A stretch of DNA of 64,000 bases, taken from sequence record NZ_CP104589.1; one strand, written 5' to 3'. A model generated the notes under the pieces. It made no database searches, had not been told where the DNA came from, and worked only from the letters and a program-made list of their open reading frames with translations. This document shows, in pieces, positions 1-41,140 of the stretch; the first letter of the stretch is position 1, and the number at the start of each line of letters is the position of its first letter. Source of the stretch: a plasmid. The translations under genes were made by a program, and so were the position numbers.

Positions 1-417
1 GCCAACTGCCTGCAGGTGTTTGCCCGATCAAGCCACTTCGGTACCGGCCAGCCCTACAGCGGCAGTCGCATTGTGGCGCTGCCATACCCCACCGACGACA
101 CCCGCGACCTACTCGCCGCCGCCATGCATGGCCTGGCCGATCTCTACCGCGATGGTGTGGCCTACGCCAAGGCCGGGATCGTACTCACCCAGTTCGTCGA
201 GCGCGGGGCCACCACAGGCGATCTTTTCGCCCCAAAGCCGAGGACGGGAAGTGAGGCGGTGATGGGCGTCATGGATGCGATAAACGCCAAGCAGGGAAGG
301 GGTGCGATTCGCCTGGCCCGTGACGCCAGCGCCCGGCCCTGGGCCATGCGCCAGGAAATGCTGAGCCCGCCCTATACCACCTCATGGCAAGGGCTGCCGG
401 CAGCTAAGTGCATCTGA
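1..417 (+). CDS. 3' portion of a UmuC/RulB-family Y-family polymerase gene (partial; continues left of window)
   Basis: Open frame from base 1; C-terminus AMRQEMLSPPYTTSWQGL resembles the conserved UmuC/MucB/RulB C-terminal motif (MKREMLSPRYTT..W). From memory, not searched. Confidence 0.55.
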   Translation, partial: ANCLQVFARSSHFGTGQPYSGSRIVALPYPTDDTRDLLAAAMHGLADLYRDGVAYAKAGIVLTQFVERGATTGDLFAPKPRTGSEAVMGVMDAINAKQGRGAIRLARDASARPWAMRQEMLSPPYTTSWQGLPAAKCI

Positions 418-485
418 GGTGCTTGGCATTGCAAACTGTTCTGGCATGCTCCAGGGCATTTCAGCGGCAGGTTTAGGAGTGGAAC

Positions 486-1124
486 ATGGCTATAGAAATC
501 GACGCAGACATATTCGATGAAGAAGATATCGAGTTTATTACGACAACTCCGCGCTATTTACGGATCGGCCTTGCCTGCAAAGAGCGAAACGACTTGTCGA
601 GCGAAACGACTCCAGTGACCATCAGCTACGGCATGGCTACAGAGGAGCAAATAGCTGCCCTATTCACGCCATTCGGAAGGCCAAAAGGTGAACCGGTGGG
701 GAGTGAAAATTTCAACGGGCGTTATTGCTATGAGGCCTGGATCGGTAAAAAGCTTGTTGGTATTTGCTCCCTGCAATTGAGCGGAGCGAAATATAAAGAT
801 AACACTGTAATGTCGCTAAGTCTTGAGGCTATATATGTTAAGCCTAGATATCGGGGAAAAGGCATTGCTCGCGAACTGTGCGAATATTCATCAGGTTTAG
901 AGTTTGAGCGAATATTGACCTTTATACTTTCAGATTCAGAATACAAGTCACGCGAATATCTCGTTTTTGCAGGAGCAGAACTGCTTAGCAGAGGCGGGCA
1001 GTCTGCAATTATCAACATATGCGAAGAAATTGAAGCTGACGCTGAGCGCCTTTCAGAGGTGCATGGCGTTAATATACGAGTAGATTCTGATACAGATAAC
1101 TGGTGTACGAATGAGCGAATTTGA
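486..1124 (+). CDS. GNAT-family N-acetyltransferase-like protein
   Basis: 212-aa ORF; VKPRYRGKGIAREL resembles the acetyl-CoA binding motif (R-x-x-G-x-G/A). Markedly lower GC than flanks. Confidence 0.5.
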   Translation: MAIEIDADIFDEEDIEFITTTPRYLRIGLACKERNDLSSETTPVTISYGMATEEQIAALFTPFGRPKGEPVGSENFNGRYCYEAWIGKKLVGICSLQLSGAKYKDNTVMSLSLEAIYVKPRYRGKGIARELCEYSSGLEFERILTFILSDSEYKSREYLVFAGAELLSRGGQSAIINICEEIEADAERLSEVHGVNIRVDSDTDNWCTNERI

Positions 1125-1932
1125 AGACGAGTTGACCTCAGAGATTGACCGCCTAGACGTAGTAGGCGATGGGACGCCAAGGCGAGTGCAATATCGTTAC
1201 AGAGATAATATCAATCTCGACTCGCCAGGACTCGGCCTTGTCGCTGGACGGTCAGCAGCAATACGACGCCCCGGACTAGCCAATCTGATCCTCGGCGCCC
1301 TAAGCCAGGCGGTAGAAGGTGATGTAAGCAAGGTTTTGGTCTTTGCTAATAGCTCTAAAAATCTGCTTACACGAGAAATCGTTGCGATAGCCAGCCAGCT
1401 AGAGTTTTCAGATATTGATAACGTCCATCTTTCTGAGGAAGGCTACAGACGGCTCGTTAATGGAATAAACAGAATTTCTCAGCTTGGAGTTCTCCATGAG
1501 GATGATGCGGAATCCGAAGCTCCTGGAGAAGAAGAAACCTTGTCTTGGAGTGGCGGGCCTGTCAGCCATGAAAAACTCAAAATTGAGCTTTCTACTGCTA
1601 GTCCGGGCACAGTGGCTATAGTAGAGAACGCTCACCTTCTTGAAATGGGTACAGAAACTAAGTTTAAGCTTGTAGAATTGCGCAATGAGGCTGCAAAATC
1701 TGGAGTTTATCTTTACATGGGTGTTGGTACTTCGCATTGGCCAGAAGTCAGAAAAAACAAAAAGTTAGTGTTAAGCGATTTGGACGAGGACTTTTTTGGC
1801 GCAGTGCATGTGGCAGACAAGATTTCACTATTCGATGCCGAGGGTGGTGGTCTGATCCTTTCGATCTTCGACAACCGCCAAGTCGAGCCATGGCGCGGCC
1901 CGTTTAACCCACAGGTGTTATTCCCGAACTGA
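1111..1932 (+). CDS. hypothetical protein (low-GC islet partner of GNAT gene)
   Basis: 273-aa ORF overlapping the GNAT stop by 14 nt; no recognisable motifs. Confidence 0.4.
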   Translation: MSEFEDELTSEIDRLDVVGDGTPRRVQYRYRDNINLDSPGLGLVAGRSAAIRRPGLANLILGALSQAVEGDVSKVLVFANSSKNLLTREIVAIASQLEFSDIDNVHLSEEGYRRLVNGINRISQLGVLHEDDAESEAPGEEETLSWSGGPVSHEKLKIELSTASPGTVAIVENAHLLEMGTETKFKLVELRNEAAKSGVYLYMGVGTSHWPEVRKNKKLVLSDLDEDFFGAVHVADKISLFDAEGGGLILSIFDNRQVEPWRGPFNPQVLFPN

Positions 1933-1989
1933 GGCTTGGGTTTCTCCAGCTGCATGGTTTTCTGGTGGCACAGAGAACAGGGAGGCAGC

Positions 1990-3474
1990 ATGCAGCTCCG
2001 CGAATACCAGGCAAACCAGGTTCAAGACCTTCGCCAAGGCATCAGCCAGGGGCATCTAATCCAGATGCTCATGAGCCCTACGGGCTCCGGCAAGACCGAG
2101 GTGGCCAAGCACATCATCGCCAGCGCCGCGGCCAAGAACCGCAAGGTGTGGTTCATCGTCGACAGCGTGAAGCTGCTCGATCAGACCTTGGCGCGCTTCC
2201 ACAAGGACGGCATCTACGCCGGTGCCATCCAGGCGGATCACCCCTGCACGGATTACTCGAAGGTCGTTCAGGTGGCCACTGTGCAGTCGCTGGCCGGTAG
2301 GCTGGACTGGCTGCTGCGTACTCAGCCGCCAAAGCTGGTGGTGATCGACGAGGCGCACGTTGTTTTCAAGGCCCACCTTGAGCTGATCGCATGGTGCCGA
2401 AGCAATAAGGTGCCTGTGATCGGGTTGAGCGCCACGCCATTCAAGCGCGGATTGGGCAAGATCTACGACAACCTCATCAACCGGATCAGCACTGCTGAAC
2501 TGACTGAAATGGGCTTCCTGGTACCGGCCGAGTGCTACGCGCCATTCGTGCCGGATCTCAAGGGGGTGGCGGCAAGTAACGATGGTGATTGGGCCGATGA
2601 TGCCCTAGCTCGCGTTATGGGCGGGGCCGACATCCTCGGAGATGTTGTGAGCCACTGGCGGCAGCTTGGGGAGAATCGCCAAACGCTGGTTTTCGCCTGC
2701 AACGTCCATCACGCCAAGCAGCTGGCCGAAGCGTTTTTCAATGCAGGGATCATGGCTGCCCATATCGACGGGTATATGGACAGCGCGGAATCCGACGAGC
2801 TCATTCGGCTGTACAAGGAGGGAAAAATCAAGGTGCTTGTCAGCGTCGGGATGCTGGCCAAGGGCTTTGATGATCCGCGCACCGGCTGCATCGTGATCGC
2901 TCGACCGACTAAGAGCCTAATGCTCCACTACCAAATTCTTGGCCGCGTCCTGCGTATTTTTGAGGGCAAAACCAACGGCATCATCATCGACCACGCGGGC
3001 AATTTGCTTCGCAACGGGTTGCCCACTGACGAGCTGCCTGATCGACTCGACATGGGTGATGGCGATCCGGTTGACCGGGCCAAAAAGGATAACAACCCTG
3101 ACAAAGCCGACAAGACGAAGCCCTGCCCGAAGTGCAATTTCGTTTTGACTGGCCTGCTATGTCCGAAGTGTGGATTTGAGATCAAGATCGATGCCGGCGT
3201 TGAGGTAGCAGCAGGTGTCCTGGTCAAGCTCGGAGACCGGAAGACCAAGATGGCGGCGAGCACGAAACAGCATGCTTACGCTGAGTTGCTGGGTTATGCG
3301 CAGCAGAAGGGCAAAGGGGCCATGTGGGCGCAAAGCGCCTATCAGGCCTTCATGGGCGAGCCAATATCCCGTGACTGGGCACACTCAACATCAGCCGCGC
3401 CACCCGGCGAGCCGATGCAAAACTGGGTCAAGGGCTATAACGTGCGTCGGGCCAAGAGTAAAAAACGTGCCTGA
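1990..3474 (+). CDS. SF2 (DEAD/DEAH-like) helicase with C-terminal CxxC zinc ribbon
   Basis: Walker A SPTGSGKT, DEAH-like VVIDEAH, SAT motif LSATP, helicase C region; C-term CPKCNFVLTGLLCPKCG. ATG at 1990 follows GGAGG. Confidence 0.7.
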   Translation: MQLREYQANQVQDLRQGISQGHLIQMLMSPTGSGKTEVAKHIIASAAAKNRKVWFIVDSVKLLDQTLARFHKDGIYAGAIQADHPCTDYSKVVQVATVQSLAGRLDWLLRTQPPKLVVIDEAHVVFKAHLELIAWCRSNKVPVIGLSATPFKRGLGKIYDNLINRISTAELTEMGFLVPAECYAPFVPDLKGVAASNDGDWADDALARVMGGADILGDVVSHWRQLGENRQTLVFACNVHHAKQLAEAFFNAGIMAAHIDGYMDSAESDELIRLYKEGKIKVLVSVGMLAKGFDDPRTGCIVIARPTKSLMLHYQILGRVLRIFEGKTNGIIIDHAGNLLRNGLPTDELPDRLDMGDGDPVDRAKKDNNPDKADKTKPCPKCNFVLTGLLCPKCGFEIKIDAGVEVAAGVLVKLGDRKTKMAASTKQHAYAELLGYAQQKGKGAMWAQSAYQAFMGEPISRDWAHSTSAAPPGEPMQNWVKGYNVRRAKSKKRA

Positions 3475-3551
3475 TTGGTGGCAAAGGGCTTGGGTTTTCG
3501 GCACCCTCAGGCCAAATACAGGAGAGGCCAGCAAGGCTTGAAGGTGATTCA

Positions 3552-3959
3552 GTGAAACTCAGCCATATTGAAGTGACAGTCCCTATCGGCCGCACGGAGC
3601 GAGGCCAGACCATCACGGTGATGGATCTGCTCAAGGCGTTCTCGGTAGCCACTGGCACAGAGATAGGCAGCCAGGAGTTTGATCGGGCACTGGGTAACCC
3701 TTCGCAGCTGCACGCGAAGGAAACTATCGAGAATGCCGGCCGGTACCGCACGGTTAGAACCCTTGCCCAAGGGGCGCTAGAGGGCGGTCCTGTGAGATTC
3801 GACGCTGAGGGTGATGCGGTACTGCATTCCCTCAGTGCCGAAGCGCGTCAGGTAGCGCCTGGTCAGTGGATCAAGACCATCACCATTGAGCTGCAAACTG
3901 GCCTCGAAAAGAATCTCGGGCTTGATCAGGCGCTCGACGCCTTCAATGCCGGGAAATAG
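3552..3959 (+). CDS. hypothetical protein
   Basis: 135-aa ORF with GTG start; coding-like composition. Confidence 0.4.
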   Translation: MKLSHIEVTVPIGRTERGQTITVMDLLKAFSVATGTEIGSQEFDRALGNPSQLHAKETIENAGRYRTVRTLAQGALEGGPVRFDAEGDAVLHSLSAEARQVAPGQWIKTITIELQTGLEKNLGLDQALDAFNAGK

Positions 3960-3983
3960 CGTACCAACCAGAAGGAACCCTCT

Positions 3984-4259
3984 ATGAATCGCCAGGAACT
4001 CGTCAAAGCAGTTGCGGAAAAGTCGGGCCAGAGCCAGACCGCAGTAAACGACATGCTCAATGCCTTCATCAGCACCGTGCAGGACACTGTGGCCGCAGGC
4101 GATAAAATCGCCCTCGTCGGCTTCGGCACCTTTGAGTCGGTCAAGCGCGCCGAGCGCCAGGGCCGCAATCCGGCCAGCGGCGAGCCGATCACTATCCCGG
4201 CTTCCACGCTGCCGAAGTTCTCCCCCGGCAAGGCGTTCAAGGATCAGGTGAACGCTTAA
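3984..4259 (+). CDS. HU-family DNA-binding protein
   Basis: 91 aa; MNRQELVKAVAEKSG...GFGTFESVKRAERQGRNPASGEPITIPA is a typical HU/IHF fold signature. Confidence 0.8.
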   Translation: MNRQELVKAVAEKSGQSQTAVNDMLNAFISTVQDTVAAGDKIALVGFGTFESVKRAERQGRNPASGEPITIPASTLPKFSPGKAFKDQVNA

Positions 4260-4272
4260 CCTCACCGACTAT

Positions 4273-4297
4273 GGCCGCCTCCGGGCGGCCTTTCTTC
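4273..4297 (+). terminator. intrinsic terminator after HU gene
   Basis: GGCCGCC-TCC-GGGCGGCC hairpin followed by TTTCTT. Confidence 0.5.
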
Positions 4298-4314
4298 AAG
4301 GCAAGGAAACGCGC

Positions 4315-4722
4315 ATGGAATCAAGAACCATTGGTGCAGCTGAGGTCGCGCAGAAGATCGAGGCTGAAAACGCGAAGGTGAAAGAGCGGCTGGCCGCTGG
4401 TATCCCAGCATTGATGCGTCTGGTGAAGGTGGCGCTGAGCGATACAGGGCAGTCTCGCGTATGTGGGCGCTTCCTGCTTGGGCTCTACAATGGTGGGTAT
4501 TACCGATTCGACCTGACTGACTTCCGCTCCCTCGATACAGAGCTGTTCGAGGACTGCTTGTCGGTCTTGAAGATGGATGCCAACCCCATTCGCGAAGTTC
4601 ACCGGCTGATCGAAGACGGTGATGCTGTGTTCCACCGCTTGCGCATGTATTGGGCTAGCGAGGAAGAGGCGGCAGGCTTTACAGAATCGGATCGTGTTGC
4701 ATGGAGCCAGGGTCGTGTCTAA
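4315..4722 (+). CDS. hypothetical protein
   Basis: 135-aa ORF. Confidence 0.45.
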   Translation: MESRTIGAAEVAQKIEAENAKVKERLAAGIPALMRLVKVALSDTGQSRVCGRFLLGLYNGGYYRFDLTDFRSLDTELFEDCLSVLKMDANPIREVHRLIEDGDAVFHRLRMYWASEEEAAGFTESDRVAWSQGRV

Positions 4723-4982
4723 CGCAGAGCAAAGCCAAGTAGAACAAGTGCTGGCCAGCCCGGCCACCAGCACCTGGTTGCGCAACGCCCTCACCGAGGC
4801 CCTGCAGCGTGACCCCATCGACGCGGCAAACGATGCCGAGGCCCTGAGTGAGCTGCTGAGTGCTCGTTGCGAGGATCTGCTGCAGAAGGCAACGCGCTAA
4901 ACTGACCAGAATCTGGCAAGCATAACCCCTTGGGACGGGCGAGAGGTGTGGGAACATCTCAACCAAGATCAAGGGGATTTTT

Positions 4983-5417
4983 ATGCCTGAAAAACACTCC
5001 ATCACCGAGGCTATTGGTGGTCTCATCAGCTGCTTGGCGTCTCATGCCTGGGCGATCCTGCGGTTTCGACACTACGGGCAAGGCTTAACTCTGGCTGAGC
5101 TGCCATTGCTTTGTCTCGGGGTACTTGCTGCGGCCTCGGTCAGCGCAACAGCCTTCCTTGCGCCCTCCGAAAATGCTGCCCATCACCCCCTTATGGTCGG
5201 CGCGCTAACGGCGGGAATCTTTGCCGCTTGCTACACCTTCTGCGGTCGCGCCGGTGTGGCGGGTTTCATCATCCTCACGATCCTCACTGAGCCCGTCTCG
5301 ATTGCCTTGCGTTTGGCCGGGCTGGGTGATGTTGTCGACCCGGTTTTCACCCTCTGGGTGCTTGCTTCCGAGCTGGTGTTTTTCTTCCGCGCCGCCGGTG
5401 CAGAAACCCGCGCCTAG
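4983..5417 (+). CDS. hypothetical membrane protein
   Basis: 144 aa, several hydrophobic segments. Confidence 0.4.
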   Translation: MPEKHSITEAIGGLISCLASHAWAILRFRHYGQGLTLAELPLLCLGVLAAASVSATAFLAPSENAAHHPLMVGALTAGIFAACYTFCGRAGVAGFIILTILTEPVSIALRLAGLGDVVDPVFTLWVLASELVFFFRAAGAETRA

Positions 5418-5442
5418 CCAATTCCAGAGCGAACATATTCCT

Positions 5443-6903
5443 GTGAAACCCACTCACGAACAACAGCCCATCATCGACTACAAGGGCCTGCACCTCGTTG
5501 TGAAGGCCTATGCTGGCTGCGGCAAGACGGCCACGCTGGTTGCGTTTGCTCAGTCAAACCCGAACCTGCGGATTCTCTACCTCGCCTACAACAAGGCGAT
5601 CAAAGACGAGGCCCTGAGCAAGTTCCCCGACAACGTGACCTGCAAGACGGGCCACCAACTGGCCTGGCCCAAATTCGGCAGCAGATATGCCCACAAGCTG
5701 GGCAACACCAAAATGACGGATGTGGCCCGGCTGCTGAATACGAAGGACTGGGGCTTCGTCAGAAACACCATGGCAGTGGTCAGCAGCTACATGAGCAGTG
5801 CTGATGCAGAAATTGGTATCGCCCATTTCTATGCCGGGGTGCCCGCCGAGGATCAAGACGCTTTCAGTGATAGTGATATCGAGAAACTCCTGAATGCTGC
5901 ACAAACCTTGTGGGAGGAAATGACGGACATTGAGTCATCGTTCATCTGTGAACACGACGCCTACCTGAAGCTGTACCAGCTTAGCGGGCCTGAACTGAGT
6001 TACGACTGCATCCTGTTCGATGAGGCTCAGGACGCAAACCCGGTTGTCAGTGCCATCGTTGCAAGCCAGCCCGGGCAGAAGATTTTCGTCGGTGATCCTT
6101 GGCAGCAGATTTATCGCTGGCGAGGGGCAGAAAACGCCCTGGACCAGCAGATCGAGCAGGGCGCTGAGCCCATGTACCTGACCAACTCATTCCGGTTCGG
6201 TCCGATGATCGCCGGAGTGGCCAACGCCATCCTCAGGCTGCAGGGCGAAACCCGCCCCCTGGTAGGGCTGGGCCCCATGGATAAGGTCAAAACATCCATT
6301 GAGGGCATCAGGGGCCAGTACACGATCCTCAACCGGACTGTTTCAGGCGTAATCATGTCGGCCATTGAGGCCGTCTCAAATGGCCATGTCGTCTACTGGA
6401 ACGGCGGCATTGGCGCCTACAACCTGGAAGGGCTTGAGGACACCTACAACCTCAAGAACAACCGCATGGGCGAGATCCGTGACTTCCGGGTGAAGGCATT
6501 CAAGTCCTATGACGCCTATACCGAGGCAGCAGAGGCCAGCGAAGATCCAGAAATGCTCCGCACCATGCGGATTCTGAAAGACCACGGGAATATTCCGCAG
6601 CTGCTGGCGGCGCTGCGCCAATACTCGACCGACGACATCGAGGACGCCGATATCGTCGTCAGCACGACACACCGGGCCAAGGGGCTGGAGTGGGACATCG
6701 TGCTTCTCGATGAGGACTTCCCGGACATATTCGACCCGGAGAGGGTAGATCCCGACCAGGTGGGGGATGAGCTGAACCTGCTCTATGTGGGTGTTACCCG
6801 GGCCCGGAAAATCCTGATCCTCAACACCCTGGTGCAGAGCATCATCGTGCGCGCTCACCGCGCAGCCAAACTCGCGCAAACCAAATCGACGGAGCCAACA
6901 TGA
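5443..6903 (+). CDS. UvrD/PcrA-like SF1 helicase
   Basis: Walker A AYAGCGKTAT near N-term, FDEAQD (Walker B/DExx) and a UvrD-like C-terminal region (VSTTHRAKGLEWDIV, LLYVGVTRAR). GTG start at 5443 chosen; the ORF track opens at 5221. Confidence 0.7.
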   Translation: MKPTHEQQPIIDYKGLHLVVKAYAGCGKTATLVAFAQSNPNLRILYLAYNKAIKDEALSKFPDNVTCKTGHQLAWPKFGSRYAHKLGNTKMTDVARLLNTKDWGFVRNTMAVVSSYMSSADAEIGIAHFYAGVPAEDQDAFSDSDIEKLLNAAQTLWEEMTDIESSFICEHDAYLKLYQLSGPELSYDCILFDEAQDANPVVSAIVASQPGQKIFVGDPWQQIYRWRGAENALDQQIEQGAEPMYLTNSFRFGPMIAGVANAILRLQGETRPLVGLGPMDKVKTSIEGIRGQYTILNRTVSGVIMSAIEAVSNGHVVYWNGGIGAYNLEGLEDTYNLKNNRMGEIRDFRVKAFKSYDAYTEAAEASEDPEMLRTMRILKDHGNIPQLLAALRQYSTDDIEDADIVVSTTHRAKGLEWDIVLLDEDFPDIFDPERVDPDQVGDELNLLYVGVTRARKILILNTLVQSIIVRAHRAAKLAQTKSTEPT

Positions 6904-7700
6904 TCGAGCTGTTCATCGCTGTTCTGCTTATCCCCACTATCACCATCGCGGTATGGGACCGCTTCATGCACCGCATGTCGGTGAATACCCGCCGGGTTTA
7001 CCGCCTATCTGGCCTGATCGGAGTGCCGATCCACGAGCTCGCTCACGCTCTGGTCTGCATCGTCTTTGGGATGCGTATCACCCGGATTTCTTTCTACCAG
7101 GCGAACCAAGCAAGTGGCACGATGGGTTTTGTCGACTTCCGCTATTCGCCCTACTCACTCGGTCATGCCTTAGGCCTGGCCCTGCAAGGTATTGCACCGC
7201 TGCTGGCCGGCGCTGCAATTGTTGCGCTGCTGATTGGTTCGTTCAATGCTGTTGAGCGTCCAGCTGGTGGGGTTTTGCCACTGCTAGGCTGGATAGCGGC
7301 GGTTGTGGAATCGACGCTCGATAGCCTGCTACGCGAAGCCTCAAGCGGCCTGCTTGGTGTGCTGATTGCCCTGTTTGTATTGATCGTGAGCATGCACGCT
7401 ATCCCGAGCCTCGCAGATATCGTCACGGGGCTGCGGGGGTTGATCATGCTCATCGTTTTTATGTCTGCAGTTGTTCTGGCTTTTGAGCTCTTTGGGACCT
7501 ACGAAAGCCAGATCGGTGAGCGATTCGGCAACATGGTTGCCTGGAGCCTTTTGTGGATAGAAAAATCACTCTGGGCGATGCTCTATGGCGCGGTGTCAAT
7601 GGTGACCCTGGCCATTGCCGGCGGTATCCTGCTGATTCTTCTGCCCTCGGCCGTTCTGTACTGTGTGGATTTTGTACGGGGCGCACGCGGCAAGGTTTAA
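6900..7700 (+). CDS. polytopic membrane protein with HExxH motif (putative membrane metalloprotease)
   Basis: 266 aa, about 6 hydrophobic helices; HELAHAL motif in first loop; ATGA overlap with helicase stop implies translational coupling. Confidence 0.5.
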   Translation: MIELFIAVLLIPTITIAVWDRFMHRMSVNTRRVYRLSGLIGVPIHELAHALVCIVFGMRITRISFYQANQASGTMGFVDFRYSPYSLGHALGLALQGIAPLLAGAAIVALLIGSFNAVERPAGGVLPLLGWIAAVVESTLDSLLREASSGLLGVLIALFVLIVSMHAIPSLADIVTGLRGLIMLIVFMSAVVLAFELFGTYESQIGERFGNMVAWSLLWIEKSLWAMLYGAVSMVTLAIAGGILLILLPSAVLYCVDFVRGARGKV

Positions 7701-7730
7701 GCCGCCCAGGACCACTTTCGAGGTAAAAAG

Positions 7731-7931
7731 ATGCCCCAAGCTACCGCCCCCATTATCAGCCGCGGCACCTTGATCGCTGCGCTCATTCTGTTTCTGGCGG
7801 GCGCTGCAACCGGCGCTGCAATAACGATCTGGCGGGCTGAGCCTGCGGCGAGCGAGGCTGATGAGGCCAAGGATGAGCGCTACATTCCGAAGCGCAATCG
7901 GGTCTTCCCTCGTCGGGTCGATGTCGTCTAA
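7731..7931 (+). CDS. small membrane protein
   Basis: 66 aa, one TM segment. Confidence 0.3.
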   Translation: MPQATAPIISRGTLIAALILFLAGAATGAAITIWRAEPAASEADEAKDERYIPKRNRVFPRRVDVV

Positions 7932-8219
7932 ACGCAAATTTGCGGTGCGGCCTCTTGCCCTGCCGCAATAGCCCGGGCATCATAGTCGTGCGCAAGCTGT
8001 GCGCTAAACAGCTCAAGTTCTCTTGCAGGCGTGTCAACGTCGAGCAAATCAAGACGCACCAATCGGTGCAACTCCAGAATCATTCACCCATGCATGTGCA
8101 TAGGTGTTTGTTCCGCGTCTAACGCGGGTCGAAGCTGACGACTCATTCAGTTCAATAAAGCCCTTGCGGGGAAATCTCCGTAAGGGGGATTTCTCCGCTT
8201 CAATATCTGGAGTAGAGAA

Positions 8220-8573
8220 ATGGAAAAGTCTGTCATTAACCTGACTAAGTTCAAAGCAACCGCAGAGCTGGAGCGTTTCGGCGTCCGTGATCTGTCGAGC
8301 TGGAAGGAATTCCAGGAGATTCGCAATCTTCTGTTTTTTCCAACGCCTCCTACCCAAGACATTGTTGCCACCCGCGTTGAGCGGCTCGGTGCAATTGCCT
8401 TGAAGGAAGCACAAAAAACTGGTTCCGATAGCGTCCTTGTGAGCTGTCCGCCATGGATGATGCAGGCCCTGTGCAGCGAGTTGGTTTATCTCAACTTGAA
8501 GCCAGTTGTCAGTTTCACCAAAAAGACCAATGAAGAAGGCTTGTCCGTCATCAGTCTGGTCGCTGCTGCTTAA
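8220..8573 (+). CDS. hypothetical protein
   Basis: 117 aa; preceded by a hairpin plus anti-SD/SD module. Confidence 0.45.
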   Translation: MEKSVINLTKFKATAELERFGVRDLSSWKEFQEIRNLLFFPTPPTQDIVATRVERLGAIALKEAQKTGSDSVLVSCPPWMMQALCSELVYLNLKPVVSFTKKTNEEGLSVISLVAAA

Positions 8574-8671
8574 TTAAATCAGCAACACAACAATCAACCC
8601 ATCGGGGAAAACTTCCCCTATGGGAGTTCTCCTTTCTGGGTTTCAACGCTTTTGAGAAAGGAAAACTAACC

Positions 8672-9661: not shown

Positions 9662-9741
9662 CAAACCAACCCTCTGGGGGAACTTTTCCCCTCGGGGCGA
9701 AGTTCCCCCTTTTTTGCTTTTGAGAAAAGGAGAACTTCGCA

Positions 9742-10908: not shown

Positions 10909-10991
10909 TCTGACCCATACACCCCGCCTGGGAGCAAACCTCCCAGCTGGGGGGTTTCTCCGTCTGGCGGTGGCGAGAAAGGAGAAACGAT

Positions 10992-30541: not shown

Positions 30542-30739
30542 AAGTACTGTTTACTCGACTACGTTAGTAATAGTTGAACTTTGATTAAGCGTACCAGTTA
30601 TTTGAACCGTAGCGCGGGGAGCTTAACGAACCGAGCCATTCCTCGATAGAGTTCGGCAAAACCTTCGTTTTGTCGAACCATTGCATCGCCCTTTGTGATT
30701 GGCGTATAAACACACAAACACCTATTAGCGGAGAACGCT
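30542..30739. promoter_or_regulatory. divergent promoter / probable res region of the Tn5563-like element
   Basis: AT-rich interval between divergent tnpR and the RHH gene; position typical of res. Confidence 0.4.
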
Positions 30740-31389: not shown

Positions 31390-31392
31390 TCA

Positions 31393-34386: not shown

Positions 34387-34398
34387 TCCCCCTAAACG

Positions 34399-34611
34399 CT
34401 ATGAGCAACACCCAAGCTGCTGCTGGATCGGCGGGCACTTCACCGAGCCGAACGAACAGAAAACGCAGCAATCCCCTGGGTTGGGGCGCAGCAGCGCCTT
34501 GCAGTTGCTGCACTCGTAATAGAACTGGCAGGCGTCCGTGGGCATGGTTTCCGGCTTGGCGAAGCCGCAGCGCGGGCAAGTCAGCACGGACTCAAGGACA
34601 ATGGCGCTCAT
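34399..34611 (-). CDS. small Cys-rich (zinc-ribbon-like) protein downstream of merP
   Basis: 70 aa with CPRCG...CSNC...GDCCVFCSFGSVKC; sits where merA or a transporter would follow merP. Confidence 0.35.
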   Translation of the reverse strand: MSAIVLESVLTCPRCGFAKPETMPTDACQFYYECSNCKALLRPNPGDCCVFCSFGSVKCPPIQQQLGCCS

Positions 34612-34618
34612 CGTGACC

Positions 34619-34894
34619 TCACTTCTGCACTGTGGAGGGGTATCCCGCGTTCGCGGTCGCCTCAGTCAGTGCCTCGGGCTGGGCCTTATCGGGATCGTAG
34701 GTGACGGTCGCCGTCTTCTGGTCGAAATTGACCTGGACGTCACTCACGCCGGACACCTTCTCCAGCGACTTCTTGACCGTGATCGGACAGAGTCCGCACG
34801 TCATGTTCTGCACGTCGAGCGTGACGGTTTTCGGGGGAGCCGCCAGCGCCACGAAGGGCAAGGCGAAAAGCACGGCGATCAGCAGTTTGCGCAT
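34619..34894 (-). CDS. merP: periplasmic mercury-binding protein MerP
   Basis: 91 aa, signal peptide, GMTCxxC metal-binding motif (QNMTCGLCP). Confidence 0.85.
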   Translation of the reverse strand: MRKLLIAVLFALPFVALAAPPKTVTLDVQNMTCGLCPITVKKSLEKVSGVSDVQVNFDQKTATVTYDPDKAQPEALTEATANAGYPSTVQK

Positions 34895-34906
34895 GGTTAA
34901 TCTCCT

Positions 34907-35263
34907 TCAGTAGAACAGCGGGGCGAGCCACGGCACGGCCAATAGGCCGAGCAGCAGCACGCTGACGATCCAGAACACGAGTCGCTGTCGCACGAGCGTG
35001 CGCGGATCGGCGCAGGGTGTACCTGGCGTACAAACCTGTGGCACCAGGTAGAGCTTGCGGAATGCCAATCCCAGGAACAGTAGAGTCAACCCGATTAAGA
35101 GGGGGCGTAGTGGCTCCATCATGGTCAGAGCGCCCACCCACGTACCGCCGACACCGAGTGCCAACAGCACCAGTGGCCCGACACAGCACACCGACGCACC
35201 GATGGCGGTCAGCGAACTCGCGACCAGCGAGCCTTTCCCGGTGAGTTGCATCCCCATTCCCAT
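34907..35263 (-). CDS. merT: mercuric ion transporter MerT
   Basis: 118 aa, three TMs, vicinal CC in first TM (ASVCCVGPLV) and cytoplasmic C..C pair. Confidence 0.8.
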   Translation of the reverse strand: MGMGMQLTGKGSLVASSLTAIGASVCCVGPLVLLALGVGGTWVGALTMMEPLRPLLIGLTLLFLGLAFRKLYLVPQVCTPGTPCADPRTLVRQRLVFWIVSVLLLGLLAVPWLAPLFY

Positions 35264-35298
35264 CTCCTGAGCCTGATTGCCTAGGTGCTATTCTAAAC

Positions 35299-35316
35299 TC
35301 CGTACCAAAGTACGGA
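35299..35316. promoter_or_regulatory. mer operator/promoter dyad
   Basis: TCCGTACcaaaGTACGGA between divergent merT and merR, like the canonical merOP dyad. Confidence 0.7.
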
Positions 35317-35331
35317 ATCAAGGAGAAAGTG

Positions 35332-35730
35332 ATGGCCACAGAGCTGACCATTGGCAAGCTGGCAGACGCCGCCGGGGTGAACGTCGAGACGATCCGCTAC
35401 TACCAGCGACGCGGGCTGCTGGATGAACCAGCCAAACCCTTGGGTGGCCATCGGCGCTATCCGGTGGACATGGTGAAGCGACTGCGTTTCATCAAGCGGG
35501 CTCAGGCGCTGGGTTTCACGCTCTCGGAAGTCGGTGGACTGCTGACGCTGGATGAGTCGTGCGCCTGTGCCGAAACGCGAGCACGGGCTGCACGCAAGCT
35601 CGCGTTGATCGAGCAGAAGATGGCCGACTTGGTCGTCATGCAGCAACTGTTAGGCGAACTGGTGCAGCAATGTGATGCGGGAGACGGCGGAACGATCTGC
35701 CCGATCATCGAGGCACTGATCAGAGAGTAA
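35332..35730 (+). CDS. merR: MerR mercury-responsive regulator
   Basis: HTH LTIGKLADAAGVNVETIRYYQRRGLL, Cys residues for Hg binding (C..C and CP near C-term); AGGAGA SD. Confidence 0.85.
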   Translation: MATELTIGKLADAAGVNVETIRYYQRRGLLDEPAKPLGGHRRYPVDMVKRLRFIKRAQALGFTLSEVGGLLTLDESCACAETRARAARKLALIEQKMADLVVMQQLLGELVQQCDAGDGGTICPIIEALIRE

Positions 35731-37457
35731 TGCCTGGCGGGTGAGCTGGAGATCGGAAAGCCCCTTTACGGTGGGATTCAGAGCTTACGTTGGTTTTTGG
35801 TTCCATTGCTCCCCAAACCCCACCACCTGGCCAGCGGCATCTATGATGACCGGCCAATCACGCTGCGGTGGCCAGCACGGCGGACGGTAGTTCGGCGCAT
35901 CAGGAATCGCTAGGGGCGAGTCGATGCCGAGGCCAAGTTCGGAAAGAATATTTTTCGTCATGCTGATCTTTGTCGCAGTTCTGCCAATCGGATGAAGCCA
36001 TCCCAGGCCGGGTGGTAGTCACCTTCACTTATGCGCGCTCTGGCTTCTTCGACCCAAAGCCTGCGGACCTCGCTACTTTCTTCGAAGAAGCGCAGTTTGG
36101 CCGTCAGCCGATCGATCACCAGCAGGGCCGGATGCTCTGTCGTCAGGTGCTTACCCGAACTGGATGGGCGGTAGCGTGCCAGTTCAAGCGATTTGAGGTG
36201 GCGCAAGCTACCGAGAGACCACACATGATCCTCACTTTCGATATCCCGGTGCTGGGTACAGAACAGGCAACCGGCAGCATTGATGCAGTCGGGTCGCGGA
36301 CCATTCTTCGGCATCGTGCCCACTGGTTCAGGTGTGGCCGATACACATCTACCAGGAGCAGGAGGTGAAAGGGACGGATCGGTTTGCTGATGGAAGCGCG
36401 TAATTTCCACCATAGCGATCTGCGGATGGGGGTCGGCATATACGCGTATCAGCGTTTGCACCGTATGCTGGGCCAACTCCGCAACCTGTTGGGGATTCTG
36501 GGACTCCCGAAGCAACCAGTTGATGCGCGTCCCGCGCAGTTTTCGCGGTCTCACTATCGGTATGCCAAGCTCGCGGCAGATGCGCGTAACGTTCGTGAAC
36601 TGCGTCGCCTCTTCTAGGATTCGTCCCCCGCTACGTATAAGCGGAAAGAGCAAACCATCCGGCTCATTGGGAAACCATTCGGAACGCCATTCGAGATAGC
36701 GCTCGAACCACTCTCGATAACTGGCAAAGATCTCGAATAGCACTTCTCCTTCCCGTCGATTTTTGTAGGTACGTACCTGGTAGCCGTCTATGTGGCTGGT
36801 GTAATGAAACTGCTCAACCCGCAGGGTATGTGCTTGCTGGAGGTTCAGACCGGTCTGGGCGATGAACATCAGCAATTCACTCTCGATCCGTAAATTGACG
36901 ATGGGGAAACGGGTCCGCAGTGTCCGATCTGCATCGTGGGCGGCACGCGCCGCCAGGGATGCTTCGATTTGCGCTTGGTTTTGCGGCCTGGTACGGCGGG
37001 CCGCTACTTTCTCGGGGCTCTGCAATCCCGACCATAGTTCCAGCACTTGGCCGGTGCGTAACGAAATACAAACTGGGAGGGGGGCCATTGTCCCCCTCCA
37101 GGTCAATGCCTCGCATACGTCAGCTAGAAGGTGTCCGAATGCGAAGGTGTTTTGCAGATTCTGCTTGTCCGCTTTGCTCGTATGTACCTTGCCTTTGCCG
37201 CGCGGCTTGCGAATACGTGTGCTCTTGCTCAGGCTTGCTTGGCGGTCCAATGCTCGGTCCAGCATCGTCGCCGTGAGCCTGGTGAGATCGTACAGGGACC
37301 CATCGCTGAAATTGCGTTCGACTCGATGACGCTGGAGCAAGTGATCGGTCCAACGAATGAACGTGTCGGCCGCCGTCTCGAGACTGAGATTCACGTTTTC
37401 TGAATCGATCCAGGCAAAGAATCGGCGCAATGCACTGATCTTGTTCTGCACCGAGAG

Positions 37458-38784
37458 AGGGTGTGCAGAATTTTGTGTAACCGGGGTTGGGGTTATTGCT
37501 GCGGCAGCCGGTCTTCGTAGCTGATCGTAAAGCGCGTCAGCGCCGCCTTCCAGTCACGGATCGGCATCGTCCATTTCTTGCTGATGTTGCGTAGCGCCAG
37601 GTAGAAGAGTTTCATCAGCGCCTCGTCGCTGGGGAACGAGCCGCGGTTCTTGGTGATCTTGCGCAAGCTCATGTTCACCGATTCGATGGCGTTGGTGGTG
37701 TAGATCACCTTGCGGATCTCTGGCGGGAAGTCGAAGAACGGCGTGATCCTGGCCCAGTTGCGTCGCCAGGACTGGCCAATCGGCAGGTAGTCGTCATCCC
37801 ACTTGGCCTCGAACTCGCCAAGGCGCAGTTCGGCCTCGTCAGCCGTGCTGGCTTGGTAAATCCGTTTCAGGTCAGCGGCGACTTCAGCCCGCCGCTTCCA
37901 GGACACGTAGTTCAGGCTGTGCCTGACCATGTGCACGATGCACAGCTGCACGCTGGTGTGCGGGAACACCGCCTCGATGGCCTCGGGGAAGCCCTTCAGG
38001 CCATCCACGCAGGCAACGAAGATGTCCTGCACACCGCGGTTGCGCAGCTCGGTCACCACCTGCAACCAGAACTTGGCGCCCTCGTTCTGGGCGATCCATA
38101 GGCCGAGGATTTCCTTCTCGCCAGCCAGATTGATGCCCAGCGCCAGATAGACCGCCTTCACCCGCACGGCGCCCTCGCGCACCTTGGTGTGGATGCAGTC
38201 GAGGTAGACGATGGGATACACCGCATCGAGCGGGCGCGACTGCCAGGACTTGACCTCATCGGCCACGGCATCGGTCACTGAGGAGATCAGGCTGGGCGAC
38301 ACCTCGGCGCCGTACATTTCCTGCAAGTGCGCCTGGATCTCGCGCACCGTCATGCCGCGGGCATACAGCGAAAGGATCTTGTCGTCGAAGCCCGTCCAGC
38401 GGGTCTGGTGCTTCTCGACGATCTGCGGATCGAAGGTGCCATGCCGGTCGCGCGGCACCTCGATGGGCAGTTCGCCGAACTCGCCCTTGAGTTTCTTCCT
38501 GCTGAAACCGTTGCGCGTGTTGCCGGTCGGGTTGCTGACCGGCTGATGCTTGTCGTGGCCCAGGTGGTGGGTCAACTCCGCATCCAGTGCACGCTCGACC
38601 AGCTTCTTGGTCAGCTGCTTGAGGATGCCGTCGGCACCGATCAGGTCTTCAGGTTTCTGGTAGTTGGCCAGGAGCTGATCCAGCAGCTCGTCGGTGATGG
38701 GGTGTTTCGTCTTGCTCATGGTGTCTCCGGTGCGGAGCGACAGTGTCGCTCATGAGCCGGTTACACAAAAATTCGGACACCCTC
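37458..38784. mobile_element. IS256-family insertion sequence (1,327 bp) with 8-bp TSD
   Basis: Imperfect IRs GAGGGTGTGCAGAATTTTGTGTAACCGG / reverse GAGGGTGTCCGAATTTTTGTGTAACCGG; direct repeats CACCGAGA at 37449-37456 and 38785-38792. Confidence 0.8.
37493..38719 (-). CDS. IS256-family (mutator-type) transposase
   Basis: 408 aa; DDE region with typical IS256-family blocks (YLDCIHTKVREG, LCIVHMVRHSLNYV). Confidence 0.9.
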   Translation of the reverse strand: MSKTKHPITDELLDQLLANYQKPEDLIGADGILKQLTKKLVERALDAELTHHLGHDKHQPVSNPTGNTRNGFSRKKLKGEFGELPIEVPRDRHGTFDPQIVEKHQTRWTGFDDKILSLYARGMTVREIQAHLQEMYGAEVSPSLISSVTDAVADEVKSWQSRPLDAVYPIVYLDCIHTKVREGAVRVKAVYLALGINLAGEKEILGLWIAQNEGAKFWLQVVTELRNRGVQDIFVACVDGLKGFPEAIEAVFPHTSVQLCIVHMVRHSLNYVSWKRRAEVAADLKRIYQASTADEAELRLGEFEAKWDDDYLPIGQSWRRNWARITPFFDFPPEIRKVIYTTNAIESVNMSLRKITKNRGSFPSDEALMKLFYLALRNISKKWTMPIRDWKAALTRFTISYEDRLPQQ

Positions 38785-39016
38785 CACCGAGAAGCGACTT
38801 CCGCCACCAGCAAGGTCGTCAGTCATGTGCTCATGCAGCTGCGTCACCAGCTCGAAACGTTCCGGCAAGGGACTGCCGAGTTCGCCCTGCGCGATCTGGC
38901 GGCCCACATGCTTCACCTTTGCTGCTGCACCTCCGCGAAACAGCAGCGGCCGGAGGTCCCAGGGCGTTTCAGTGGCCCCATACTCAAGCATCGGGAAAGT
39001 GAGGTCGAATTCGGAA

Positions 39017-40306
39017 CTATCCATCGTGCCGCGCCCCAGCGCCGATCCCGCTAAATGCCGCCATGAAGCTATTTGAGAGGGCTTGTTTGATCGGCAGTGC
39101 CTGTACGAATCGGATGTATTTGAAGGTGGTGGCTTCAGAGTTAGGCCCATGGAGCAACGCGTCGCTGACCGTCGCAATTACAATAGCGACATCGGCACAA
39201 GCCGATAGCGCCAGACGTGCCAATTCGGTACCGAAGGTGCAGCGCGACTGATGGAAGCGGAATTTACGGAGCACCTGTAGTTCTGCTTTGACGCCCCGTT
39301 TTCGAAACTCGGACATCTCAACATTCACAGCAGATGACTGATCGGTGCCGCGCCTGCCATAGGCGTTACCAAAGCGGGTCAAGAACAGCAAATCACGATT
39401 CTCGGGCGAGGCTTTCGCCTCTCGTTCCATCCTCCGCCAGCCTTTGGCATATTCCAGCAATTCATCACGCAACGCTTCGGGTATCCAGACCTGGCCAGTC
39501 ACACCGAATTTCGTGTGCACTGGCGGAGCTGCGCCTGGACCAACTGCAAGGCGTAGAAGCCCTTCAGCGGAAGGGTCGGGGGCGGCGCGCTCCAGAGACT
39601 GAATCTTGAGATCACAGATGCTGCCGAGCCGCATCCCGGTAAAAAATCCAAGGGCCAACATGAGGTAGAGCTCGGGCGTGGCGTTCTCTGCGGCGAAATC
39701 CAGAATTGCATCGCGATCGGTCTCCGAGACTGGCAACAGCCCATCTTCAAGCGTTTGGCCTGGGCGCTTACGGTTCGGGATGCTGAGGTCGGTGGTGGTT
39801 CCGCTGATCGTTCGCTCGAACCCCACCCGGTCGAAGTATTTAACGACGTAGGGTTTTTCCCGCCACAGCTGGACGTGTGGAGAAAGAAGCTCCCTATGCC
39901 TTACCCACCGATAGAACATGATGCAATTGCGCATGTACTCAGACGCCGTGGATGGGCCGATCTGGCCGGCATCGCGCATCTTGATCAACGCCCCTCGGTA
40001 TAGCACCAGGCAGCGGTCAGCTTTGCGAGCGGGAAACTCGAACCACTGCAAATCACGAGATTCAAGAAATTTAGCGTAATTGAGAAGGCCATTCATGTTA
40101 CTGGCAACGGTCTTAAGAGAAGCGTCACCAGTCGTTGCTCGCTCCACTGCCCACAGGTTTGCCTCCCTCCAAGGTGCATAGTCTGCCCAAAAGATTTGGG
40201 GCAAGCCCTCAATGGATGGCCGGCTGCTACTGGGGGAGTATGCGACGGCGTTCTCTCTGCGCACGAGGTAATGGGGCACGAAATGAATGCGCTCTAGCGT
40301 CGCCAT
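39017..40306 (-). CDS. tyrosine recombinase (XerC/D-like integrase of the rulB-inserted element)
   Basis: 429 aa; box I R (FFTGMRLGSICDLK), HxxR (FHQSRCTFGTELAR), catalytic Y near C-term (TTFKYIRF). Confidence 0.75.
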   Translation of the reverse strand: MATLERIHFVPHYLVRRENAVAYSPSSSRPSIEGLPQIFWADYAPWREANLWAVERATTGDASLKTVASNMNGLLNYAKFLESRDLQWFEFPARKADRCLVLYRGALIKMRDAGQIGPSTASEYMRNCIMFYRWVRHRELLSPHVQLWREKPYVVKYFDRVGFERTISGTTTDLSIPNRKRPGQTLEDGLLPVSETDRDAILDFAAENATPELYLMLALGFFTGMRLGSICDLKIQSLERAAPDPSAEGLLRLAVGPGAAPPVHTKFGVTGQVWIPEALRDELLEYAKGWRRMEREAKASPENRDLLFLTRFGNAYGRRGTDQSSAVNVEMSEFRKRGVKAELQVLRKFRFHQSRCTFGTELARLALSACADVAIVIATVSDALLHGPNSEATTFKYIRFVQALPIKQALSNSFMAAFSGIGAGARHDG

Positions 40307-40318
40307 TCAACGCCCCTG

Positions 40319-40365
40319 GGACGCTTAACAATGTCCATAGATAGAACTCAATAGCTTAGGCGTCC
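40319..40365. repeat. inverted repeat at the junction of the integrase element and rulB'
   Basis: GGACGCTTAA ...27 bp... TTAGGCGTCC; the right arm supplies the stop codon terminating the truncated rulB reading frame. Confidence 0.4.
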
Positions 40366-40691
40366 GCACTATACAACTTACTCTTATCGATTGAGTAGAT
40401 GAAGATGCGCGGGCTCAGCTCCTCCAGAATGGCCATCATTCTGTTGCTGAGAGACTGATACAGCGGATAGTTGGATGAGAAAATTTTTACTCGGCCTTGG
40501 GCGGCCATCTCTCGCAGCTCGAAAACGGGCTGCCCCATCTTGATCCCGAGCGCCTTGGCGGCATCATTGCGGCTTACAACGGCGCCGTCATTGTTGCTGG
40601 CCACCACCACCGGATGATCCCTCAGCCAGGGCTCGAACAGCGTCTGCGCCGAGCAGTAGAAAGCGTTGGCGTCGACAAGGGCGATGGTCAT
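40356..40691 (-). CDS. 5' fragment of rulB/umuC (Y-family polymerase), truncated after about 112 codons
   Basis: MTIALVDANAFYCSAQTLFEPWLRDHPVVVASNNDGAVVSRNDAAKALGIKMGQP is the UmuC/DinB N-terminus; ATGA overlap with rulA stop. Confidence 0.75.
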   Translation of the reverse strand: MTIALVDANAFYCSAQTLFEPWLRDHPVVVASNNDGAVVSRNDAAKALGIKMGQPVFELREMAAQGRVKIFSSNYPLYQSLSNRMMAILEELSPRIFIYSIDKSKLYSADA

Positions 40692-41116
40692 GTCAAACCG
40701 TGCAGCACCCACATGCACACCCCCCAAACCTCCAGCTCCTCGCCATCGCCCAGCACTAACGGCGGGTACTGGTCGTTCTCAGCCACCAACATCGCCCGCC
40801 CCTCGCGGTCGTACTGCAACCGCTTGACCAAGAACTCAGCACCGATAATCGCCAGCACCACATTCCCTGGCTGGGAGCGTTGTGCCTTGTCCACCACCAG
40901 GATATCGCCGTCGAAGATGCCGGCCCCTGTCATAGAATTGCCAGAGGCCTGGAAGAGGAAAATCGAGGAGGATTTTCCCATCCCCACACGTTGATCCAGG
41001 GACAGGTCCGGCTGCTGGTAGTCAGCGGCCGGCGAGGGAAAGCCGCAGCTAGCCTGGCCGCCGAAAGCGGTCGGTGCTGGTGATGGTGAATGGATGCCGA
41101 GATAGTGAGCGCGCAT
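40688..41116 (-). CDS. RulA/UmuD-like LexA-type S24 peptidase
   Basis: 142 aa; ...FLFQASGNSMTGAGIFDGDILVVDK...VVLAIIGAEFLVKRL shows S24 Ser (GNSM) and Lys (VKRL) dyad. Confidence 0.8.
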   Translation of the reverse strand: MRAHYLGIHSPSPAPTAFGGQASCGFPSPAADYQQPDLSLDQRVGMGKSSSIFLFQASGNSMTGAGIFDGDILVVDKAQRSQPGNVVLAIIGAEFLVKRLQYDREGRAMLVAENDQYPPLVLGDGEELEVWGVCMWVLHGLT

Positions 41117-41124
41117 TGCTGATA

Positions 41125-41140
41125 CTGTCTATATATACAG
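41125..41140. promoter_or_regulatory. LexA (SOS) box upstream of rulA
   Basis: CTGTCTATATATACAG fits the CTGT-N8-ACAG consensus, 9 bp upstream of rulA start. Confidence 0.65.

Follow-up and report, generated by a model that had tools for sequence, protein, structure and literature searches.

A plasmid rulB gene split by the integrative element SE-PaeBT2436 and probably rearranged around the transposon Tn5563a

The strand-biased circularizing integrative element (SE) SE-PaeBT2436 carries tmexCD-toprJ and is defined by its Tfp (WP_034039553.1) and Srap (WP_023443007.1) proteins (PMC10214605; Idola et al, 2023). Its core genes are intA-tfp-intB-srap and its usual cargo is tnfxB-tmexCD-toprJ, a tigecycline-resistance pump (PMC10214605); in the resistance literature it goes by the name int1-int2-hp1-hp2-(recF)-tnfxB-tmexCD-toprJ, inserted in umuC (PMC8547460, PMC10269656, PMC10015498). 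In the SE model, the spacer of the target is retained at attL, attR bears a 6-bp footprint that stems from the donor, and recombination of attL with attR yields a strand-biased circular copy but no empty site (PMC10214605). Integron-like elements (ILEs) of Pseudomonas were mapped to pWW0 position 6488 in rulB, with a GAT direct repeat (PMC4542609; Rhodes et al, 2014), and SE proteins form a cluster separate from those of a further group, the GInts, with SE-PaeBT2436 among the SEs (PMC10214605). Here, we describe a stretch of 64,000 nt of the plasmid record NZ_CP104589.1 (the window), in which the umuC-like gene rulB is present as two pieces facing in opposite directions. The reading we favor, with a probability of about 0.8, is that rulB was split by SE-PaeBT2436 and that the element was then cut by the mercury transposon Tn5563a, with an inversion via a second Tn5563a copy.

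Sister backbones of the window were recovered by exact-protein look-ups. The comparison sequences include the island-free 50-kb contig of GCA_024520255.1 (L004 and L016), the chromosome CP129981.1 (L003 and L015), a further sister sequence (L005), a Klebsiella variicola plasmid with the uninterrupted element (L001), the P. aeruginosa plasmids NZ_CP071948.1 (L002) and pWTJH17 (L007), and elements of Stutzerimonas stutzeri (L011) and Xanthomonas hortorum (L014). Gene identities come from Pfam and NCBIfam profile matches, and PLSDB, genome_contigs and metagenome_contigs were scanned for junctions. The rulAB operon and the two backbone segments that bear its parts are as follows.

41125-41140: LexA (SOS) box CTGTCTATATATACAG, 9 bp upstream of the rulA start (pattern search)
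41116..40688, minus strand: rulA, umuD-like, 142 aa, the same as the L004 gene (Peptidase_S24, E=8.6e-22)
40691..40387, minus strand: 5' part of rulB, overlapping rulA (IMS family, E=1.2e-22; tblastn of the reconstructed RulB)
1..417, plus strand: 3' end of rulB, residues 285-422 and the stop codon (IMS_C and DUF4113, Pfam)
418..18418, plus strand: backbone segment A, collinear with L004/L016 (window 1-11130 and 4462-17275) and L015 (window 4466-18419) at 99.4-99.98%
40393..64000, minus strand: backbone segment B, with a Fic protein gene at 42953..41751, a Rep3 initiator gene at 49007-50044 and others (L004 match, Pfam)

A sequence-only reading of this DNA had proposed an SOS box, rulA and about 112 intact rulB codons at one end, and a UmuC-like rulB 3' end on the plus strand at 1-417. 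The box, rulA and both rulB parts are found as described, but the native rulB sequence, from 40691 down to 40387, amounts to only 101 codons plus 2 nt; beyond 40387 the open frame adds nine element-derived codons before its stop at 40358-40356. The L004 homology of the 5' side stops at 40393. The pattern CTGT-N8-ACAG has two matches in the whole window, a count that is not significant (at least two in 19 of 100 shuffles).

The full RulB, rebuilt from L004 after restoring a 4-bp gap, has 422 aa. The translation of 1-417 is 100% identical to it, and the two pieces align to it as residues 1-102 and 285-422 of one gene, with no overlap. The 3' part is contiguous with the remaining rulB sequence in L003 and L004 and is cut at position 1 by the window edge, with no biological break there; codons 103-284 lie to the left of position 1, and contiguity at the break is beyond the reach of the window. 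Each piece shares at least 99.9% identity with its counterpart in L004, which has a single rulB. Moreover, the flanking DNA follows the same contig, window 1-11130 corresponding to L004 9516-20639 on the same strand (identity range 99.9-99.99%) and window 40393-49358 to L004 8966-1 on the opposite strand (99.99%), so that, with this sister backbone as the reference, segment B stands in inverted orientation with respect to segment A. In L004, the genes for Fic, two small open reading frames (ORFs), rulA, rulB, the GNAT-like protein and a helicase succeed one another in one orientation without any insertion. The window holds one rulA, two rulB pieces and nothing else that is rulA- or rulB-like. 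Because both pieces with their own flanking backbones match one L004 rulB, and because a single rulA is present, these alignments lead us to regard both pieces as derived from one gene.

The sequence-only reading had left room for two independent rulB loci. In that case, 1-417 would be where another complete rulAB operon, located to the left of the window and unrelated to the truncated one, comes to its end. The window edge does cut the 3' piece, such that codons 103-284 and whatever precedes them lie beyond view, and one ILE is known to hold a second, oppositely oriented rulB-like gene (PMC4542609). However, the match of both pieces and their flanking backbones to one L004 rulB is of 99.9-100%, and a second locus would need a duplicated segment B, with a single rulA found in 64 kb. 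In L003 and L005, furthermore, the rulB 3' part is identical or nearly so to that of the window, begins at the break point and is preceded not by rulA but by the right end of the island: toprJ lies just upstream of the junction in L003, and L005 starts inside the right end of the element. We thus consider two loci very improbable and retain the origin from one split gene.

The DNA that follows the rulB 5' part on the minus strand contains, as the sequence-only reading had noted, tandem recombinase genes, the first intact and the second split by an insertion sequence (IS).

40387..40392, minus strand: 6-bp attL spacer AATCGA, target-derived (the final nt of codon Ser100, all of codon Ile101 and the first two nt of codon Asp102)
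40386..40307, minus strand: left terminal region of the element, with motif C (TAAGAGTAAG...) ending at 40386 (attL alignments of the window, L001 and L011)
40306..39017, minus strand: intA of SE-PaeBT2436, 429 aa, intact (Phage_integrase, E=6.8e-6, weak)
39024..35958, minus strand: tfp of SE-PaeBT2436, 576 aa in relatives (WP_034039553.1), IS-interrupted (DNA match to L001)
37457..38784, minus strand: IS256-family IS within tfp, with its transposase at 38719..37493, 408 aa (Transposase_mut, E=9e-120, Pfam)
35961..35822, minus strand: intB' of SE-PaeBT2436, the first ~46 codons of a 679-aa large recombinase (100% identity to L001 starts at 35821/35822)

Window 35821-37456 and 38782-40391 correspond to L001 6001-7636 and 7626-9235 at 99.9-100% identity, and the same two stretches are 99.9-100% identical in more than 60 plasmids of Klebsiella, Pseudomonas, Raoultella, Citrobacter and Enterobacter; a protein 100% identical to the window IntA is found in many Klebsiella and Pseudomonas plasmids. 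The gene order in those plasmids is WP_034039555.1 (429 aa), WP_034039553.1 (576 aa), WP_034039551.1 (679 aa) and WP_023443007.1 (154 aa), after which come a gene for an AAA ATPase and the TetR/tnfxB regulator; all adjoin umuD, and TOprJ1 is found further on in L002. The window tfp pieces share 99.9-100% DNA identity with the L001 gene for WP_034039553.1, which is the defining Tfp of SE-PaeBT2436; srap, absent from the window, occurs in L001 and L002. The operon order intA-tfp-intB-srap at the motif-C end is recovered when the window and L001 are combined. Judged from these matches, the "integrase-rich element" of the sequence-only reading is the left end of SE-PaeBT2436, with which it shares 99.9-100% identity over the retained 3.2 kb, gene order, target, orientation and the spacer/footprint pattern. 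It differs in that the window keeps only the left ~4.6 kb, tfp and intB being broken and the two ends separated by the inversion. Comparison with L001 detected no srap, ATPase gene or tmexCD-toprJ cargo in the 64-kb window. This copy would now be immobile, with tfp broken, intB truncated and attR displaced such that the two ends are separated.

The catalytic residues of the three recombinases were judged by eye, with no structural alignment behind the assignment: IntA displays TGMRLGS, HQSR and H..Y, IntB displays MRVEE, HQLRR and H..YY, and Tfp has TGLNLQQ and KLRGTR, without Arg I and without His. Pfam gives weak Phage_integrase matches for IntA and Tfp and none for IntB. The IS256-family IS in tfp is flanked by an 8-bp target duplication, CACCGAGA, as read from its junctions against the uninterrupted L001, indicating a simple insertion.

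The insertion splits the Asp102 codon of the catalytic SIDE (YSIDE) motif, 305 nt into rulB, with the element in the same orientation as rulAB. The intact target reads ATC TAC TCA ATC GAC GAA TGT, i.e. I-Y-S-I-D-E-C. On the rulB strand, attL is ...ATCTACTC-(AATCGA)-TAAGAGTAAG..., in shorter form TACTC-(AATCGA)-TAAGAG. The window holds attL alone, and attR is known from the sister genomes L003 and L005 with the same rulB, where it reads ...CTTTCCTTTA-(CATCGA)-CGAATGTTTT..., i.e. (CATCGA)-CGAATG. The terminal inverted repeat is imperfect (TAAGAGTAAG versus TAAAGGAAAG), C and C' agreeing at 7/10 of the first positions. The attR spacer CATCGA is the attL spacer in L001. Taken together, the window attL and the L003/L005 attR display the spacer, footprint and terminal repeat of the SE model. 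The junction falls after RulB residue ~102/103 in the window, L001 and L011 alike, in rulB/umuC genes that are 47-54% identical: the L001 umuC is 54% identical to the window rulB, and L011, whose element has an IntA 73% identical and arsenic cargo, has a rulB 47% identical. The same junction in three divergent rulB/umuC genes argues that targeting is site-specific.

An inverted repeat near the frame stop, already pointed out by the sequence-only reading, does exist, although it is weak (arms 40319-40328 and 40356-40365, 10 nt, 9/10 complementary). A role as the att site is rejected: the crossover lies at 40387-40392, and the repeat at 40319-40365 is weak and not kept in the 73%-identical relative L011. 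A scan of the interval between the rulB' stop and intA found no promoter-like or terminator-like site, and an exact-protein look-up of the rulB'-element fusion ORF returned no record. The motif CTATGGACATT is located at 40326-40336, ~30 nt upstream of intA, and is kept in the window, L001 and L017 (an IntA relative), with a shorter form, ATGGACATT, in L011. Towards the right end of the element one finds TATGGACAT as well as ATGTCCATGG, the same motif inverted (L003 ~8883-8895 and 8934-8943). These motifs are possible recombinase or accessory-protein binding sites.

Two sister sequences display further particularities at this target. L004 rulB carries a 4-bp deletion (AATC) lying exactly within the 6-bp spacer AATCGA (L004 8959-8974, corresponding to window 40387-40400), which frameshifts the gene at YS/DE. 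Loss of an element, or an abortive recombination event, may have produced this deletion as a scar; by published accounts, SEs do not leave empty sites (PMC10214605). In L002 (12540-12650), the left end of the SE bears a short foreign umuC piece (residues 67-103, 62% identical), and the plasmid's own rulB (residues 1-84) is interrupted elsewhere, at 17440-17691, beside another tyrosine recombinase gene pair; this arrangement suggests nested or passively moved copies.

The element remnant is abutted by a resistance region that extends over 18419-35821.

18419..27657, minus strand: Tn1403-like (Tn21-subgroup) left arm with a class 1 integron (NCBIfam; named after Tn7493, PMC10015498)
18419-18456: 38-bp terminal repeat of the Tn1403-like transposon, followed by tnpA (21418..18452), tnpR (22096..21422) and intI1 (23370..22357)
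Integron cassettes, plus strand: fosX-like, blaVIM, aac(6')-Ib, blaOXA-10-like and aadA1 (NCBIfam)
End of the cassette array: small ORF, putative qac-type (SMR) pump, read by eye
27658..28477, plus strand: IS26, with 14-bp terminal repeats at both ends and an IS6-family transposase
28478..29568: 1.09-kb fragment, also directly left of Tn5563a in pWTJH17
29569..35821, plus strand: Tn5563a (Tn3 family), terminal inverted repeats 29568-29610 and 35780-35822 (genes annotated after L007 and L008)
Within Tn5563a: tnpR (30541..29609), an RHH/PIN toxin-antitoxin pair, tnpA (31393-34386), merE-like/merP/merT (minus strand) and merR (35332-35730)

The sequence-only reading took this region to be nested in a rulB-associated hotspot, with the rulB halves flanking the whole mosaic. 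Neither holds: on the left the region starts with the Tn1403-like terminal repeat within traN, on the right it finishes with Tn5563a in intB, and 418-18418 is ordinary backbone that is also present in island-free relatives.

The Tn5563a-intB junction carries the second part of our argument. The stretch 29569-35821 is 100% identical to the Tn5563a copies of pWTJH17 and pMEN15, with the 39-43-bp repeats, tnpR, tnpA and merRTP present, and the match to pWTJH17 includes the 1.09-kb fragment (window 28478-35821, L007 6001-13344, 100%). The 43-nt terminal repeat of Tn5563a ends at 35821, exactly where the homology to the intact element stops. Tn5563a is flanked in the window by TACCT and ACCAC, i.e. 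by no 5-bp target duplication, whereas in pMEN15 the copy is bordered left and right by GGATC. Because the window copy thus lacks a duplication that the pMEN15 copy has, we infer a rearrangement. Since the 1.09 kb to the left of Tn5563a is also found in pWTJH17, the left flank would be the old junction and the intB junction the new one. Tn5563a is joined to intB without target duplication, and segments A and B are in opposite relative orientation compared to the sister backbone. The sequence-only reading had suggested an inversion of about 40 kb by a Tn3-family transposon or IS26; the inverted halves and a Tn3-family transposon at the breakpoint without duplication agree with it, but the size of 40 kb is not derivable from the window.

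We propose the following history. A single rulAB operon with its LexA box was hit by SE-PaeBT2436, leaving the target spacer on the left and the donor footprint on the right, as seen at the attachment sites. The IS256-family IS then entered tfp by simple insertion, and Tn5563a entered intB at ~codon 46, a decay visible in the broken genes. Before the inversion, Tn5563a would have been part of the Tn1403-like, integron- and IS26-bearing resistance region in traN. The inversion would have taken place between two inverted Tn5563a copies, the second lying outside the window, by one of two routes: either a single step in which Tn5563a moved out of the traN-borne resistance region and into intB by intramolecular replicative transposition, or homologous recombination between two independently inserted Tn5563a copies. 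This scheme predicts that the DNA to the left of the window holds rulB codons 103-284 and attR, then a cargo that is probably toprJ-tmexDC-tnfxB, and after it the ATPase gene, srap, what is left of intB and an inverted Tn5563a. The predicted junction between the intB remainder and Tn5563a is ...GGCTCACCAC/GGGGTTTGGGG, which on the window plus strand would read GGTTCCATTGCTCCCCAAACCCC/GTGGTGAGCCGTTGGGGCG, or GGTTCCATTGCTCCCCAAACCCC/GTGGTGAGCC....

IS26 offers another possible agent. It lacks an 8-bp target duplication, being flanked by GATCGGGC and GCTTTGCA, and it sits after the small qac-like ORF with no 3'-conserved segment following. This arrangement points to a deletion or inversion brought about by IS26, on top of the Tn5563a event. 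One could consider that the inversion was made by IS26 through intramolecular replicative transposition into an inverted target, or arose from an unresolved cointegrate of two plasmid copies, Tn5563a having inserted earlier in a simple manner; the different DNA on each side of IS26 at 27658-28477 would be in line with this. However, a simple insertion of Tn5563a would give ACCAC on both sides and the intB remainder on the left, where the pWTJH17-type 1.09 kb is found instead, and IS26 accounts for the join 27657/28478 but not for the join 35821/35822. We regard this explanation as unlikely and keep Tn5563a as the proposed agent of the inversion.

A different concern is the orientation itself. 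With two inverted copies of Tn5563a (6.25 kb) or of IS26, it could be an artefact, as assemblers of short reads can connect the flanks in either way, or it could represent one of two isomers between which homologous recombination flips the segment in the population. The new junction coincides exactly with the end of a long repeat, and this repeat is common in such plasmids, the merR end of Tn5563a being matched by 405 PLSDB records, and neither junction was found in any other record scanned (PLSDB, genome and metagenome contigs). Such an explanation would still require that the Tn5563a-intB junction, where the repeat abuts intB to the base, and the Tn1403-traN junction are real, and it leaves the element truly disrupted, with only the relative orientation in doubt. 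We judge it quite unlikely, somewhat more so than an inversion by IS26.

Several points nevertheless weigh against the proposed insertion and Tn5563a-mediated inversion. The second Tn5563a copy, the intB remainder and the cargo lie outside the window, and the inversion partner is thus deduced; likewise, the attR evidence comes from sister genomes and not from the window molecule. No PLSDB record spans either mosaic junction, the Tn5563a-intB junction has no match in genome_contigs and metagenome_contigs, and the predicted reciprocal junction has none in genome_contigs. The rearrangement signature at IS26 may reflect more than one event, in which case the order of events is not fixed. Finally, an assembly of short reads can get the orientation across a 6.25-kb repeat wrong, and this orientation can also switch in vivo.

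How does this element compare with other recombinase elements? The sequence-only reading had matched it to integron-like elements that target rulB. A site-specific recombinase element in rulB is indeed present, but it is SE-PaeBT2436 at YSIDE, not an element at the ILE site. Read on the pWW0 sequence, position 6488 is the GAT of LSNSD/G, 123 bp into rulB (~codon 42). ILEs resemble the window element in their left end, which has three recombinase-type genes plus a small fourth gene that is TetR-like, in their variable cargo to the right, and in being inserted in rulB, oriented as rulAB, with the first recombinase gene less than ~100 bp from the junction, downstream of a LexA-controlled promoter. 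This layout (gene set, orientation and LexA-controlled rulAB promoter upstream) is found in the window element and L001. They differ in insertion site, the VVASNNDGAVV region of the window being intact and the insertion being at YSI-D/E, and in gene size (385/525/535/138 aa, compared to 429/576/679/154 aa in SE-PaeBT2436). The ILE-site element of Xanthomonas (L014, inserted at LSNNDG) has an IntA 42% identical to that of the window. Overall, the window element is ILE-like in its working and better filed as SE-PaeBT2436, its relatedness to ILEs being gauged only via L014 as a proxy.

GInts share with the window element a four-gene left-end module (ginABCD), encoding three proteins of tyrosine-recombinase fold and a small accessory protein, as well as site specificity and variable cargo. 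The protein without catalytic residues is the third, GinC, in GInts (PMC5385486; Bardaji et al, 2017), whereas it is the second, Tfp, in the window element, in agreement with the published description of SEs, and identity with a GInt is rejected because of this difference in position. A classical integron as the rulB element is also rejected, as no attI/attC system is involved.

In the SE-PaeBT2436 lineage, where IntA identity is 73-100%, the target is the Asp codon of YSIDE, and the 42%-identical L014 lineage uses LSNNDG. From these sequences, target choice appears to vary with IntA lineage (73% in S. stutzeri, SIDE; 42% in Xanthomonas, LSNNDG). Two other relatives were seen: an element of Ralstonia with an IntA 63% identical, which is not in rulB and lies downstream of a sugar kinase gene, and one of P. 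syringae with an IntA 44% identical, which has an ORF that looks SRAP/YedK-like by eye within ~250 bp upstream. It is a tentative suggestion, which we think rather doubtful as a whole, that related SE/ILE-type four-gene elements have repeatedly specialised on the gene that encodes Pol V's catalytic subunit, at different motifs; the LexA-controlled promoter, directly upstream in both placements, would make a DNA-damage-switchable movement possible, and the L004 deletion would possibly be a scar of such elements.

The blocks of the resistance region and their order are the same as in Tn7493 of P. asiatica A28, a Tn1403-like transposon that bears a class 1 integron together with IS26 and Tn5563a (PMC10015498). 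NZ_CP063457.1, apparently the plasmid of the Tn7493 paper by host, source and content, matches 55% of 22000-35900 at 99.6%. Differences are that the window cassettes include blaVIM and a fosX-like gene, that the right-hand Tn1403 repeat is missing and that the region ends in intB. Matches of 100% to Pseudomonas plasmids begin at 18417-18419, and no partner for the Tn1403-like terminal repeat was found in the 64-kb window. The second CTGT-N8-ACAG match, CTGTTTTTTTGTACAG, is located at 23383-23398, just upstream of the intI1 start (23370, minus strand), which is where the integrase promoters of class 1 integrons are reported to carry a LexA site.

The remaining genes of segment A include the following.

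486-1124: low-GC GNAT-like gene (weak acetyltransferase match)
1111-1932: 273-aa ORF
Ending at 3474: DEAD helicase gene, with genes for a UvrD-like helicase, a CbbQ-like ATPase, DUF3150 and a VWA protein also in the segment
17393-18418: traN, first ~342 codons (TraN has 876 aa in L015)

The low-GC stretch with the GNAT-like gene, noted from the sequence, is real (47% GC over 418-1935, compared to 57% for the whole window) and belongs to the backbone, being also found in L003 and L004; a role as cargo of the event is rejected, since the island-free L004 has it. The backbone is of Pseudomonas type, with Rep3 replication and F-type transfer genes. Its conjugative transfer is probably impaired, as judged from the gene content, because the Tn1403-like repeat at 18419 truncates the F-type traN at ~342/876, the rest of traN being outside the window. 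A P4-type tyrosine integrase gene (Arm-DNA-bind_3, Phage_int_M and Phage_integrase) is present at 57295-58485 on this Rep3-bearing backbone, no tRNA gene was found in the 64-kb window, and the same backbone is chromosomal in CP129981.1 (L003 and L015). The Rep3 backbone may be able to integrate.

Overall, we describe a known element at a known target, degraded by common transposons in a kind of rearrangement that has already been described, and the current understanding of these elements is unchanged. The locus provides a worked example in which the 6-bp spacer and the footprint of an SE are read to infer the origin of the element. If the L004 deletion were indeed a scar, such elements could leave a damaged empty site, unlike published SE observations. 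For annotation, umuC/rulB fragments that face in opposite directions on resistance plasmids are best read not as two loci but as one gene that was split by insertion of an SE, with a Tn3-family transposon as the cause of the later inversion. Here, tmexCD-toprJ is probably just outside the window, beside the carbapenemase integron (blaVIM, blaOXA-10-like), and the structure explains that a plasmid can show the hallmarks of a tmexCD-toprJ tigecycline-resistance island even though this island is split and dead.

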